DNA of 64,000 bases from Escherichia phage mistaenkt. A program made the position numbers and the translations under genes. Shown piece by piece: positions 36,399 to 41,101 of the stretch; positions within the stretch are counted from its first letter, which is position 1, and each line of letters opens with the position of its first letter. The notes below the pieces were generated by a model, which made no database searches, was not told where the DNA came from, and saw only the letters and a program-made list of their open reading frames with translations. The stretch lies in sequence record MN850587.1. One strand, given 5' to 3'.

Positions 36399-39098
36399 AT
36401 GGAAAACGTAGATTTTGAAAACTTGCACTTGGTAGGTGATACCGAAACTGATGGGTTACTCCTTGAGTTCACAAAAGCACACGTAATGGCATTTGCAGAT
36501 TACAAAGATGACAGTGACGAACCTGCTGTGTGGGTCTTCACTGATGAACCTATTCTTGGTCACAAATGCACTAAGTACATTAAAGGTGGTCTTCGTGAAG
36601 GTGTAGAGTTTGCTCTTAAGGCAAAACGTCTCTGCATTCATAACGGCCTTGGCTATGACTGGTGGGTGTTCAATCACATTGCACCGGACTTATGGAACTT
36701 TGATAATCCGAAGTGTAAACCTTGGGGAGACTTCTTTCAGGATTCTCTTATCCAGTCTCGTGTTCAGTGGATGGATAGACCTACACCGAAAGGTTACAAA
36801 GGTGCTCATGGTTTGGCTGCATGGGGTGCTCGTGTTGGTGTTCGTAAACCAGAGATTGAAGAGTGGGGTGTTTGGAATGCTGATATTCTGAACCGTGTTG
36901 TTGAGGATATTCGAATCAACGCCAAAACTAAACGTGCTCTTGATAACGAATACCTGAAGCTGAAGAAGTGTGGTGTAGACACTTATGAAACCTACATGCG
37001 AGCTAAAGAAACATCTTTCTGGATGAGTCAGCAAGCTATCAACGGTTGGAAAGCTGATATTGAACTTATGCAGTTCCATGTCAAAGAACTTGACAGAATG
37101 ACTGATGAATTAGCTGCTGAAGTTGAGCCTCATCTGCCACCGACTATCAAGACGAAAGGTAAAGTTACTGGTGAAGAGTTTGCAAGGGCTTGGAACGAGT
37201 ATGTTGAGACATTTGGTGAAGCAGATGGTTTGAAGCGTATCACTAAGTATCCAAAAACTAAGTTCCGTCAGCAGGTTCGCAATGGTGAGATGCAGACTTA
37301 CGCTATCAAACCTTTTGGTAAGCCAACTACCAAGATTTTCAACATTGAGAAGCGTAACTGCTACACTCCAACTAATACGGTTACTGGAGAAGAGTACAAA
37401 GAAGGTTTCGTGGCAATGAAAGATGCTCGTGCAGTTTGTAACGAGTTGAATGCTGCGATTGATAAGAAGTGCAAAGACTGGAAGCCAGTTAAAACTGTGA
37501 AGACTGTGAAGTACTACAACAATCACGTAGTAAATCACTTTGAACTTGAGTCAAGTCGTTACACAGGTTTGATTGATGCACCTTATACACCGATTGAGTT
37601 TGAAGTTTCACGTATGACTCAGGTTGCTGTTGTGAAGGATTATCTGAAAACTCTTGGCTGGATTCCTGATGACTGGAACTACAAGAAAGATTCTGATGGT
37701 CGTCCGGTGAAGGTTTGTCGCTTCAAAGACAACAAGAAGATGATTCGTAAACATCCTAAATGGCAAGAGATGGTGGAACGTTGCGGATTGAACTATGTTG
37801 AACATGAAGGTGTACAGTACATCGAACACAACTGGTCTGTGAAGAAGTACACAGATTTGCTTGAACCTTGCTTGATTCGTACTTCACCGAAACTAACTGA
37901 ATCATCTTACGATACGATTGAAGGTGAACTTGGACAGAAGATTGCGAAGTACTATACTTTAATGCACCGACGCAGAACTATCGAGAACTCAAAGGATGAC
38001 GAAAAAGGTTGGTTAAACCAGATTCGTCCAGATGGTCGTTTGAGTGCTGGTGCAATGGTGTTTGGTACTTCAACTGGACGTATGACACAATATGGAATTG
38101 TGAACGTACCTTCTGGGGCTGCTGTTTATGGTGAACCAATGAGGGCAGTCTGGATTTGTGAAGAGGGAACCAACGTAGTATCCGTTGATATGAACTCTGC
38201 ACAGCTTGTTTTACTGTGTAACTTTATGGGCGATAAAGAGTTCACCAAAGCGGTAACTCAAGGTAAAGAAGAGATTGAGTTTATCCGTCAGGAAGATGGC
38301 AGATATTACTGCAAACACTTTGACGAATACCTGAATCCAGAAGTTGATAAGTATCTACGTTATGACTCTGAAAACGACTTGTACGTAGTTTATTCAGGTA
38401 CTGATGCTCATACACTGAACAGCATCTACTTCAGCTTGAACGAAGAACAAGATATATTGACTTGTCGTATGACTCAGGATGAAAATCTTCTTCACGAAAT
38501 TAGTAAAGGTCGTAAGAAAGCTAAGAATGGTATCTATGCGTTACTGTTCGGTGCTGGTGATGAGAAGTTTGCTAAGACGATTAAAGCTGCGACTACTCAA
38601 GAAGGTGCATTAACTAAACAGACTTACTTTGTTCGTTTACCGAAGATTAAGAAACTGTTAGATGACTTGGAAGCTGACTTTAAAGCAACTAAGAAAGCAC
38701 TCGAAGAGGTATTTGGTAAGACTGCTGCAATTGCTAAAGGTGGTTTTGTCAAGGTTGCTGGAGCATGGTTGTGGTGTAAGTCTCCACACAAACTGTTGAA
38801 CTACTTGCTGATGGGTTCAGAAGCACAAGTTCAGAATGAAGCAATCAACCTTGCATGTCGTCGTATGATTGATGAAGGTTTGATGAAGTTGAATGGTCGT
38901 AAGCCAGCTATCGGTGCTCGTTTACTCTGTGCATATCACGATGAAACAAGTTGGGAATGTCCAGAGAGCATGACAGCAGAAGTTAAGGCTGTAACTGACT
39001 GGTACTACGGACAAGCTTCTAAGAACTTAGGGCTTCGTAAAGAAACTCTGGTAACAGGGACTGGTAAAGTTGGTAAGTCTTGGTATGAGGTGCATTGA
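36399..39098 (+). CDS. DNA polymerase, family A (T7-like), with 3-5 exonuclease domain
   Basis: Exo I motif DTETDG near the N-terminus; KKAKNGIYALLFG and HDE motifs in the polymerase domain; 899 aa. Confidence 0.9.
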   Translation: MENVDFENLHLVGDTETDGLLLEFTKAHVMAFADYKDDSDEPAVWVFTDEPILGHKCTKYIKGGLREGVEFALKAKRLCIHNGLGYDWWVFNHIAPDLWNFDNPKCKPWGDFFQDSLIQSRVQWMDRPTPKGYKGAHGLAAWGARVGVRKPEIEEWGVWNADILNRVVEDIRINAKTKRALDNEYLKLKKCGVDTYETYMRAKETSFWMSQQAINGWKADIELMQFHVKELDRMTDELAAEVEPHLPPTIKTKGKVTGEEFARAWNEYVETFGEADGLKRITKYPKTKFRQQVRNGEMQTYAIKPFGKPTTKIFNIEKRNCYTPTNTVTGEEYKEGFVAMKDARAVCNELNAAIDKKCKDWKPVKTVKTVKYYNNHVVNHFELESSRYTGLIDAPYTPIEFEVSRMTQVAVVKDYLKTLGWIPDDWNYKKDSDGRPVKVCRFKDNKKMIRKHPKWQEMVERCGLNYVEHEGVQYIEHNWSVKKYTDLLEPCLIRTSPKLTESSYDTIEGELGQKIAKYYTLMHRRRTIENSKDDEKGWLNQIRPDGRLSAGAMVFGTSTGRMTQYGIVNVPSGAAVYGEPMRAVWICEEGTNVVSVDMNSAQLVLLCNFMGDKEFTKAVTQGKEEIEFIRQEDGRYYCKHFDEYLNPEVDKYLRYDSENDLYVVYSGTDAHTLNSIYFSLNEEQDILTCRMTQDENLLHEISKGRKKAKNGIYALLFGAGDEKFAKTIKAATTQEGALTKQTYFVRLPKIKKLLDDLEADFKATKKALEEVFGKTAAIAKGGFVKVAGAWLWCKSPHKLLNYLLMGSEAQVQNEAINLACRRMIDEGLMKLNGRKPAIGARLLCAYHDETSWECPESMTAEVKAVTDWYYGQASKNLGLRKETLVTGTGKVGKSWYEVH

Positions 39099-39610
39099 TG
39101 CAAGATTGTGGTTTTACTCATGAGCAATTAAAATCATGGATTCACTACGACCCCTTAACAGGTGTCTTAACTTGGATTGGTAGACCTCCTAACAGTGGTA
39201 GGGTGGTTATAGGCAGTCAAGCTGGGTCAATCAAAAGGACAAAATCTGGTGTGTATCTTCATACACAGATACTAGGTTACAGGACAGGGAATCACCGTAT
39301 TGCTTGGTTCTGGATGACTGGAAAATGGCCTGATAAACATATTGACCATAAGGATGGAGATGGTCTAAACAATGCTTGGGAGAATCTTAGAGAAGCCACG
39401 AAAGAGCAGAACATGGCTAACAGGAGACAACCTAGAACATCAAAGAGTTTAAAAGGCACAAGTAGAAGCAAATCTGGAAAGTGGATTGCACAGATTAACC
39501 ATAATGGAAAGACTAACCATATTGGCACATACATGACCGAGCAAGAAGCCCACGAAGCTTACTGTGAAGCTGCTATAAAACTCCACGGAGATTTTGCAAA
39601 ACTTAGTTGA
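39098..39610 (+). mobile_element. HNH homing endonuclease with AP2-type DNA-binding domain
   Basis: HIDHKDGDGLNNAWENLREATKEQN (HNH core), then GKWIAQINHNGKTNHIGTYMTEQEAHEAYCEAA (AP2-like); ATG overlaps the polymerase stop (TGATG). Confidence 0.75.
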
Positions 39611-39662
39611 CAAGGTGCTCATGGAAGAGTACCTTATACTATATATTGTATAGGAGACTTGT

Positions 39663-39863
39663 ATGACTATTTCAGAAATTGAAGTTCAACTGCAATGTGC
39701 TGGATATTCTCAAAGTGAGATTGAGGCTATGTGCATCATCATTTGCAGTAGCCATAAGCACCTCAAGCTTTCTAATGAAAATCTTTTCAAGGTTGATATT
39801 TTTATCGCTGGGGGCAAGATTATCAAGGATAAGACAGGCTACCTTAAAGGTGAACGTCTATGA
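39663..39863 (+). CDS. Hypothetical protein (66 aa)
   Basis: ORF. Confidence 0.5.
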   Translation: MTISEIEVQLQCAGYSQSEIEAMCIIICSSHKHLKLSNENLFKVDIFIAGGKIIKDKTGYLKGERL

Positions 39864-40069
39864 GCCATCGTGGAAGAACTCATCTTGCCATGATGCAAGG
39901 GGCTTCAAAAGAGACTATCAAGAATCGGAAGAAAACTCTTTTTGACAGAATGAATAGACTCATTGATAATGCAAGTCTACCTAACTCTGAAAAGGTTTTC
40001 TTGAAAGGGAATCTGAAGAGTATTGCACAGGAACTTATTGATATTGAATTTTGGAGACACCAAAAATGA
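39860..40069 (+). CDS. Hypothetical basic protein (69 aa)
   Basis: ORF with overlapping stop-start. Confidence 0.5.
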   Translation: MSHRGRTHLAMMQGASKETIKNRKKTLFDRMNRLIDNASLPNSEKVFLKGNLKSIAQELIDIEFWRHQK

Positions 40070-40317
40070 GCAATAAAGAGCAAGAAGCTTTAGCAATCTT
40101 CAAGAGTGAAGACAAATCAATAGCTTTTGTCTCAGAGGCTTGGTGCAGAGATTTGGGGTATGATTGGTATCTCTTCTTATGCGCTAAGAAAGATGTTAAG
40201 CCAGTTGATGAAACCCGATTCAAAGAACTGTATAATGTCTGCCAAGATGGTTATGAAGAACATTACAAAGGTTCTTTGAATCCTGTAAATTCAAAAGCTT
40301 CAGATTTATTTTATTGA
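40066..40317 (+). CDS. Hypothetical protein (about 83 aa)
   Basis: ATG at 40066 after a GGAG SD; track start 40051 is TTG. Confidence 0.5.
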   Translation: MSNKEQEALAIFKSEDKSIAFVSEAWCRDLGYDWYLFLCAKKDVKPVDETRFKELYNVCQDGYEEHYKGSLNPVNSKASDLFY

Positions 40318-40327
40318 GAGGTTTAAA

Positions 40328-40573
40328 ATGTTAAAATTATTGATACCAGCTTTAGCAGTCCTACTGGTTGGGTGTAACCCTTCTTATGAGAATAAGGATG
40401 CTTCTTACAGACTTCCTCCAGAAATGCAAGACTGCAAGATTTATAAGCCTAATGGTGATGCCATTAGCAGGGATGTTATTGTAGTTCGCTGCCCAAATTC
40501 TCAGACGACAACTTCTTACAAGTATGGGAAGAATAGTCAGTCACACGCCACAGTTTTTGATGAGGGATATTGA
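40328..40573 (+). CDS. Small lipoprotein (81 aa)
   Basis: Signal peptide MLKLLIPALAVLLVGC with canonical lipobox LVGC; mature part about 65 aa with 2 Cys. Confidence 0.6.
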   Translation: MLKLLIPALAVLLVGCNPSYENKDASYRLPPEMQDCKIYKPNGDAISRDVIVVRCPNSQTTTSYKYGKNSQSHATVFDEGY

Positions 40574-40574
40574 T

Positions 40575-40781
40575 ATGCAGGTTCTGGTAAACTTTATCTA
40601 TAAGTATGAAAACATCTTCAGCACTATGACTGTAGCTCAACGCAATCCAGTTATTCCCCGAGAAGGGGAGACTGTTGAGATTAATGATTGGAACTACAGA
40701 GTTGAAGAGGTCAAGCATAAACTTAAAGATGGTTATGACCACCAAGTTGTAAATGTGTATTTAAAAGGTAAGTGGCAATGA
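40575..40781 (+). CDS. Hypothetical protein (about 68 aa)
   Basis: ATG at 40575 after a GAGGGA SD. Confidence 0.5.
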   Translation: MQVLVNFIYKYENIFSTMTVAQRNPVIPREGETVEINDWNYRVEEVKHKLKDGYDHQVVNVYLKGKWQ

Positions 40782-41020
40782 GTAGAGAAGACCAGTTAAT
40801 TGATATGCAAAATGACAAAAATGAGGCAATATCCATAATCCCAATATTGTGGGGGCATGACTGCACATATGGTAACTATCTGTGTGTTTGTGAAGACCGA
40901 AACATTGAACCCGTAAGCCGTAATGAGTATCAAAAACACTTAAAGGCTCTTGACAATTACTTCACAGATAATAAATGCTCTCAGATTTCAAGTGAGGTCT
41001 TGCATGAAGATTTTTATTAA
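40772..41020 (+). CDS. Hypothetical Cys-containing protein (82 aa)
   Basis: ORF. Confidence 0.5.
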   Translation: MAMSREDQLIDMQNDKNEAISIIPILWGHDCTYGNYLCVCEDRNIEPVSRNEYQKHLKALDNYFTDNKCSQISSEVLHEDFY

Positions 41021-41101
41021 AGTTATTGATGAAGATTTTGGAGGGTGCTCTTGGCACTCATTTTTCACAAAAGGTTGTCTAGCTTGTGAGGCACGTAATA
41101 A

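Follow-up and report, generated by a model that had tools for sequence, protein, structure and literature searches.

The stretch of DNA analysed here, 64,000 nucleotides (nt) of Escherichia phage mistaenkt (MN850587.1; hereafter the window), carries directly behind its DNA polymerase gene (pol) an open reading frame (ORF) which is very probably a free-standing homing endonuclease gene (HEG) of the HNH(HNN)-AP2 type in an Ounavirinae phage, homing between co-infecting genomes. The insertion is very compact and lies exactly between the pol stop codon and a conserved intergenic element. The start codon of the HEG (ATG, 39098-39100) overlaps the stop codon of pol (TGA, 39096-39098) in the sequence TGATG, and its Shine-Dalgarno (SD) sequence GAGGT is situated at 39087-39091 within the final pol codons. 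At the other end the HEG stop codon TGA (39608-39610) is at the same time the TGA of a TTGACA hexamer in the intergenic element, and the final codons AAA CTT AGT TGA reuse the resident TTAGT..TGACA sequence. Due to these overlaps the insertion leaves both pol and the downstream element intact.

A preliminary description of this locus had claimed a free-standing HNH nuclease with an AP2-type DNA-binding domain at 39098-39610, beginning at an ATG that overlaps the pol stop codon. Such an ORF is indeed present on the plus strand. It can be called free-standing because it lies outside an uninterrupted pol ORF and because an Rfam scan of positions 38300-39900 gave no match, even at E<=1. A surrounding group I intron, and with it an intron-encoded endonuclease, is ruled out by the same scan, by the start of the ORF at the pol stop codon and by the intact pol of 899 residues. 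A tblastn search of the HEG protein against all 64 kb revealed no paralogue, the gene being present in one copy in the window. RNA structure masking the ribosome binding site of the HEG was considered and rejected, as positions 39050-39140 fold no better than shuffled sequences (z=+0.55).

The claimed domain architecture is likewise borne out. Residues 66-107 match the Pfam family HNH_3 (PF13392) with 54.9 bits against a cutoff of 24.8 bits (E=6.5e-15), and the protein is matched by PHROG 99 'HNH endonuclease' (3e-61). The Pfam AP2 family (PF00847) scores 30.3 bits (E=5.1e-7), which is under the curated cutoff of 33.3 bits; the sister lineages B1 and C described below exceed it with 45.2 and 39.0 bits. 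A phmmer search against PDB sequences matches the C-terminus to the AP2 domain of WRI1 (E=5.9e-6). The AlphaFold2 model is very confident (predicted local distance difference test 96.2). The protein comprises a beta-beta-alpha-metal core, in which Asn residues come after a catalytic Asp-His pair, and then the three-stranded beta-sheet on a C-terminal alpha-helix that defines the AP2 fold. D83, H84 and N105 align on D74, H75 and N96 of I-HmuI in the comparison with PDB sequences, and an alignment of 66 homologues shows no variation at D83, H84, N96, L97 and R98. As judged from these residues the catalytic motif is intact, and the protein is predicted to join an I-HmuI-like HNN core to a C-terminal AP2 fold.

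Over 3 kb the region is 98.7% identical at the nucleotide level to that of its closest relative, Enterobacteria phage CHB7, which is one of the Felix O1-like myoviruses in the Ounavirinae. About 270 Ounavirinae records match the region. The HEG protein is 100% identical to CHB7 gp37 (QBP32990.1, MK562504.1), which is annotated in GenBank as 'HNH endonuclease; AP2/ERF domain superfamily', and shares 95% protein identity with gp37 of Citrobacter phage Michonne, labelled 'HNH homing endonuclease, contains AP2/ERF domain'. Both genes are found at the same position as the window HEG, with the ATG overlapping the pol stop codon, and there is no difference of substance. The gene is already known, and its identification is already in GenBank. 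The homologue of the preceding gene is labelled DNA polymerase in CHB7, Michonne, ESh19 and Sf16.

When ESh19 and Sf16 are aligned to the window, CHB7 and Michonne, they cleanly lack about 505 bp, which is exactly the ORF. In these empty alleles the pol stop codon is directly followed by (T)TAGT(A/G)TTGACAAGGTGCTCATGGAAGAGTACC... The last 72 nt of the HEG together with the intergenic element were used as query in a search of GenBank phages. This query is matched by 258 records (RefSeq/GenBank duplicates included), 154 of which match it over the whole length and are occupied, while the remaining 104 align only from window position 39606/39607 onward and are empty. The 3' segment of the HEG occurs once per genome in this search. 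There is, in other words, a precise presence/absence polymorphism at one site in close relatives. The preliminary description had taken the gene for a selfish homing insertion and proposed a comparison with relatives that lack it; such relatives exist, and the gene is not, as it would be in the opposite case, present at this position in all of them.

The mobility of the gene was followed in a comparison set of 29 IMG/VR loci, to which GenBank loci were added (labelled L), and the pol backbones were clustered on the last 510 nt. Since pol is interrupted in L022, its pol comparisons in the dN/dS analysis are invalid, and the backbones were compared on the last 540 nt only. The HEG lineage of the window, lineage A, occurs on five or more distinct pol backbones; their nearest neighbours, at 2-9% divergence, are either empty or contain another occupant. 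Among the matches listed the lineage-A copies are full length, and a DNA polymerase is annotated overlapping or adjacent to the HEG in 40 of 40 copies. One transfer can be traced in L032, where the HEG is 86% identical to that of the window at the amino acid level and the pol C-terminus only 62-70%. The nearest GenBank relative of this locus, Hafnia phage Zyzzx (88% nucleotide identity), is without a HEG. L032 follows Zyzzx at 92-100% identity up to a point about 24 nt ahead of the pol stop codon and then switches to the donor sequence ...AAGTCGTGGTATGAGGTACATTGATG, which turns the pol C-terminus ESWLAVH into KSWYEVH. The HEG joint on the right side is illegitimate, the last four codons being replaced. 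A lineage-A HEG has entered a Hafnia-phage-like lineage with no more than 24 nt of the pol 3' end. As the region downstream of the HEG is unrelated in the L032 lineage, targeting is argued to depend on the conserved pol 3' end.

Among lineage-A copies the ratio of nonsynonymous to synonymous substitution rates (dN/dS) is 0.04-0.11, with dS up to 1.3. These low values and the full length of the copies indicate that the gene is kept by selection and is not decaying. The HEG distribution is incongruent with the host phylogeny, as seen from the backbones and from L032 in comparison to Zyzzx. Lateral transfer and strong purifying selection fit an active HEG, a reading that is supported by these comparisons, and together with the empty sites they favour the selfish insertion originally suggested.

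Judged by its alleles the site is a hotspot occupied by at least four HNH-AP2 lineages. Lineages A, B1, B2 and C, the last including the gene of Felix O1 itself, cover 145 of the 154 occupied records (Table 1). B1, B2 and C all comprise HNH_3 and AP2 domains and occupy the same position, with a protein identity of 38-48% between lineages. Approximately 6-9 of the 154 occupied records fall outside the four lineages at >=80% identity and may represent a fifth lineage or degenerate copies. In lineage B1 a serine (...CQSAWN...) replaces N105 of lineage A, which aligns with the metal ligand N96 of I-HmuI; the Asn three residues further on is retained. The activity of lineage B1 may be altered or lost, though it is the commonest occupant of the site (55 records).

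All four lineages have the last 69 nt of the gene in common. This segment encodes ...EEAH(K/E)AYCEAAIKLHG(E/D)FAKLS and the stop codon; in the form given for all lineages, EEAH(K/E)AYCEAAxKLHG(E/D)FAKLS, an x stands in place of the I. It is 91-100% identical between lineages at the nucleotide level, whereas the remainder of the HEG is 30-60% identical. Averaged over 89 between-lineage pairs, the identity is 93% for the 69-nt segment (88% at third codon positions), 77% for the pol backbone (56% at third positions) and 95% for the intergenic element, and polymorphisms within the segment are common across lineages. RNA structure as the cause of this conservation was rejected: the folding of positions 39530-39670 is not significant (z=-1.8), 12 of 200 shuffled sequences folding as well.

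The simplest reading of this pattern is a serial replacement of the 5' ~440 nt of the gene, with crossovers in pol on the left side and in the common 3' end and the intergenic element on the right side. Somewhat more tentatively, since we would put it slightly below an even chance, the block of about 115 nt formed by the last 69 nt and the intergenic element, conserved also at synonymous sites in four HNH-AP2 lineages that are saturated elsewhere, may be a common right recombination arm or a cis element (a docking or immunity site), and the end of pol a cassette-exchange site. If so, nuclease and specificity modules would be swapped serially at this site, yielding hybrid HEGs with a constant AP2 helix in the competition between phages. 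In the searchable literature neither this site nor its four lineages nor the 69-nt arm common to them was found described.

In contrast to the common right junction, each HEG lineage has its own left junction and its own pol-tail haplotype. The lineage-A tail changes the pol end from ...WLEVH to ...WYEVH. Its consensus is TGG TAY GAG GTR CAT TGA, whereas empty alleles mostly read TGG CTT GAA GTM CAC TAA (tail CTTGAAGTACACTAA). All eight lineage-A loci carry TGGTAYGAGGTRCATTGATG, and TATGAGGT is carried by two of 26 other loci, L005 and L028. The site of L005 is empty, yet a lineage-A pol tail is present (L005:3080-3125; TGGTATGAGGTACAC TAA), and in L028 a lineage-B1 HEG follows an A-type tail (L028:3035-3075; TGGTATGAGGTACAT TGA). 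The two loci resemble traces left by the loss of a HEG or by replacement and exchange. The tract 39075-39098 is probably co-converted with the HEG. Its substitutions create the SD sequence and the start codon in lineage A and may also destroy the target, which would provide target-site immunity.

From an intact, selected and mobile HNH-AP2 gene we infer all that follows. The HEG would be expressed from the polymerase transcript. In a mixed infection its N-terminal beta domain and its AP2 domain would bind a genome which is HEG-less or differently occupied, either at its conserved pol 3' end or at its empty junction, the predicted target comprising the pol 3' end and the empty junction, e.g. 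GGTAAAAGCTGGCTTGAAGTACACTAATTAGTATTGACAAGG. The I-HmuI-like active site would nick or cut close by, and recombinational repair from the HEG-containing genome would copy the HEG and a very short pol tail. The substitutions travelling with this tail would supply the ribosome binding site and probably render the occupied allele uncleavable. At least four lineages would compete for the site, replacing each other's 5' ~440 nt.

This model corresponds to the classical intron-less homing of SegF, SegG and MobE from phage T4, here by an I-HmuI-like HNN nuclease which the AP2 domain would tether, and is the best-supported reading. According to the passages on these genes in PMC2993671 and PMC2790892, they are free-standing HEGs for which homing and marker exclusion are described, and like the window HEG they are intergenic and situated beside essential genes. 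The same course, i.e. cutting of the HEG-less allele, repair from the HEG-containing genome, co-conversion and marker exclusion, is proposed here. The T4 Seg proteins are GIY-YIG endonucleases and MobE is an HNH protein without AP2, whereas the window HEG combines HNH and AP2. Furthermore, homing in T4 was shown genetically and is proposed for the window HEG.

Several points weigh against homing as the explanation. That this protein and its orthologues home is concluded from comparison of sequences, and the GenBank counts refer to records, not to independent phages. The very conserved flanks could let ordinary homologous recombination shuffle presence and absence of the gene without any nuclease. 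The target could be located in the intergenic element instead of pol; L032 argues for pol, which is however a single event with an illegitimate right junction. Finally, the need for an SD sequence and a start codon could by itself explain the tail substitutions, without immunity.

Instead of or besides simple homing, the HEG could serve as a weapon in the competition between phages, each lineage cutting empty or otherwise occupied alleles and thereby excluding the polymerase-region markers of a competitor. We consider this possible but rather doubtful as the leading explanation. At least four lineages at one site with lineage-specific pol-tail haplotypes would be consistent with it, as would L028, where B1 behind a lineage-A tail is what is expected after a replacement. 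The common 3' arm would permit any lineage to replace any other, and the catalytic core resembles that of I-HmuI. Exclusion of polymerase-region markers by I-HmuI and I-HmuII, in SPO1 versus SP82, is said to have been described by Goodrich-Blair and Shub in 1996. The support is purely comparative, however, and the same pattern could arise if empty sites were invaded repeatedly and independently, with recombination afterwards. Competition between the lineages is a plausible, non-exclusive extension of the homing model.

A passive passenger, whose patchy distribution would be due to ordinary recombination in mosaic Ounavirinae with pol and the intergenic element as arms, is unlikely in our view. 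The highly conserved flanks (95% identity in the intergenic element), the empty alleles without scars and the mosaic small genes downstream, which are not co-inherited with the HEG, are all expected from such recombination. Strong purifying selection across the whole ORF including the catalytic residues is in contrast unexpected for a useless gene. Neither does it account easily for the entry at the identical position into the Hafnia-like lineage, although the downstream region is unrelated there and the tract does not exceed 24 nt, nor for four lineages converging on the same nucleotide position. A domesticated regulator, in which AP2 would bind the adjacent intergenic element as a transcription or replication factor with the nuclease secondary or lost, is very improbable: the HEG does abut a conserved promoter-like element, its last 69 nt are conserved along with that element, and AP2 domains are sequence-specific DNA binders according to the PDB matches, but the gene is dispensable, 40% of the relatives being without any occupant, the occupants are paralogues of only 38-48% identity, and the catalytic residues are invariant.

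Among the known systems, I-HmuI (PDB 1U3E), an HNH homing endonuclease of Bacillus phage SPO1, has the same type of catalytic core as the window HEG. I-HmuI is located in a group I intron within pol and carries a C-terminal helix-turn-helix, whereas the window HEG is free-standing after the pol stop codon with no intron detected and ends in AP2. I-HmuI is an experimentally shown nickase; the activity of the window HEG is predicted. HNN-AP2 endonucleases are known from Xp10-like, T5 and T4-related phages (PMC2248197, PMC2993671). The HNN-AP2 or 'IPA-HNH' endonucleases of Xp10-like phages, T5, RB49/RB43/RB16 and ICP1 have the same two-domain architecture as the window HEG and are found in multiple copies per genome with a patchy distribution (PMC2248197, PMC2993671, PMC10448857). 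The insertion sites in Xp10-like phages looked sequence-independent, whereas here four lineages with a common 3' end reuse one nucleotide-precise site. Barth et al. 2023 (PMC10448857) reported that 29% of AP2-associated HNH HEGs are near DNA polymerase genes, that cognate HEGs need not be related even where they share a location, and that HEG domains are exchanged via homology-driven recombination. The hotspot behaviour is an instance of this already described pattern.

Six HNH endonuclease genes were reported for Felix O1 (PMC3185647), and comparative papers on Felixounavirus merely list HEGs (PMC8300805). The literature on HNH-AP2 endonucleases of Felix O1-type phages goes back to 2004-2010. 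The Felix O1 HNH endonuclease beside the DNA polymerase belongs to lineage C and shares with the window HEG the site, the architecture, the last 69 nt and the downstream element. Over the rest of the protein the identity is about 39%, its start codon does not overlap the pol stop codon, and its pol tail haplotype is TACGCCGTACACTAA.

The gene itself adds nothing new, as the identical protein is annotated and both the adjacency to pol and the interchangeability have been described. The recombination hotspot has to be kept in mind where the phylogeny or taxonomy of the Ounavirinae, a group widely employed in therapy and biocontrol, is based on pol, and it predicts a biased inheritance of the region from pol to ligase in phage cocktails. 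For studies of HEG competition and modular exchange a ready system exists in the naturally occurring empty, A, B1, B2 and C alleles, for which there are cultured isolates (CHB7, Sf14-Sf19, Michonne, Mordin, Felix O1).

Table 1. Features of the pol-HEG locus of the window, domains of the HEG protein and HEG lineages found at the site (positions are those of the window unless stated otherwise)
Feature	Position	Strand	Remarks
Family A DNA polymerase gene (pol)	36399..39098	+	899 aa; Pfam DNA_pol_A, PHROG 17
pol 3' tail haplotype tied to lineage A (...TGG TAT GAG GTG CAT TGA)	39075..39098	+	contains the SD sequence of the HEG
Free-standing HNH-AP2 homing endonuclease gene (HEG; very probable assignment), lineage A	39098..39610	+	170 aa
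Last 69 nt of the HEG	39542..39610	+	AP2 C-terminal helix; common to all four lineages at the nucleotide level
Conserved intergenic element TTGACAAGGTGCTCATGGAAGAGTACCTTATACT...	39607..39655	+	in occupied and empty alleles; unique in the window
First downstream small gene, CHB7 gp38 homologue	39663..39863	+	
N-terminal beta domain of the HEG protein	residues 1-64		
HNH/HNN beta-beta-alpha-metal core	residues 65-108		D83, H84, N96, N105, N108
AP2 domain	residues ~117-166		
Lineage A: window, CHB7, Michonne, L018, L021, L022, L032	ATG overlaps pol stop		46 records at >=80% aa identity
Lineage B1: L011, L015, L016, L028	start 7-14 nt after pol stop		55 records at >=80% aa identity
Lineage B2: L017, L019, L033	start 14 nt after pol stop		26 records at >=80% aa identity
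Lineage C (incl. Felix O1's own): L026, L027, L029	start 15 nt before pol stop		18 records at >=80% aa identity

In phage AYO145A the intergenic element carries a promoter annotation ('TTGACA(N15-18)TATAAT'), but the actual spacing of the hexamers is 22 nt (L035:402-435). A sigma-70 scan did not call the TTGACA element. A canonical sigma-70 promoter or a terminator at the junction was rejected on the basis of the scan and the 22-nt spacer, and we regard it only as a conserved element. The idea that such elements are dispersed landing pads was also discarded, since the window has the element only once and each genome has a single copy of the HEG 3' segment. The element contains a conserved local hairpin of 8-9 bp, AGGTGCTC-N6-GAGTACCT, whose folding is not significant, and a second inverted repeat overlaps the downstream GGAG.

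In the empty alleles the homologue of gp38 starts 65 nt after the pol stop codon. The small ORFs between the HEG site and the DNA ligase gene (39663-41100 in the window and the equivalents in L005-L029) are mosaic. An extra ORF of 69 residues precedes the gp38 homologue in L008, L012, L013, L018 and L021-L023, and the gp38 homologues are 35% to 98% identical in phages with a near-identical pol.

In Felixounavirus-type relatives (L022:1741-2504 as well as L020, L023-L025 and L028) pol is split by an insert of about 760 bp. The split point is a motif-B-like site which corresponds to 38540|38541 (...KNGIYA|LLFGAG...) in the uninterrupted window allele. The insert encodes an Endonuclease VII-family protein of 160 residues (PF02945, E=9e-20) and gives a weak partial match to the Rfam group I intron (RF00028, E=2e-4, 26 bits where the gathering score is 50). 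In the paper on the Felix O1 genome such insertions are stated to be absent. PHROG 6375 models only a C-terminal pol fragment of 184 residues. Finally, the pol region of Hafnia-phage-like Ounavirinae is matched at about 88% identity by the GenBank entry OK283618.1, 'Listeria phage LPML1', and a few records of 'Campylobacter' and 'Staphylococcus' phages also match this enterobacterial phage locus. These record names are probably due to host mislabelling or contamination.

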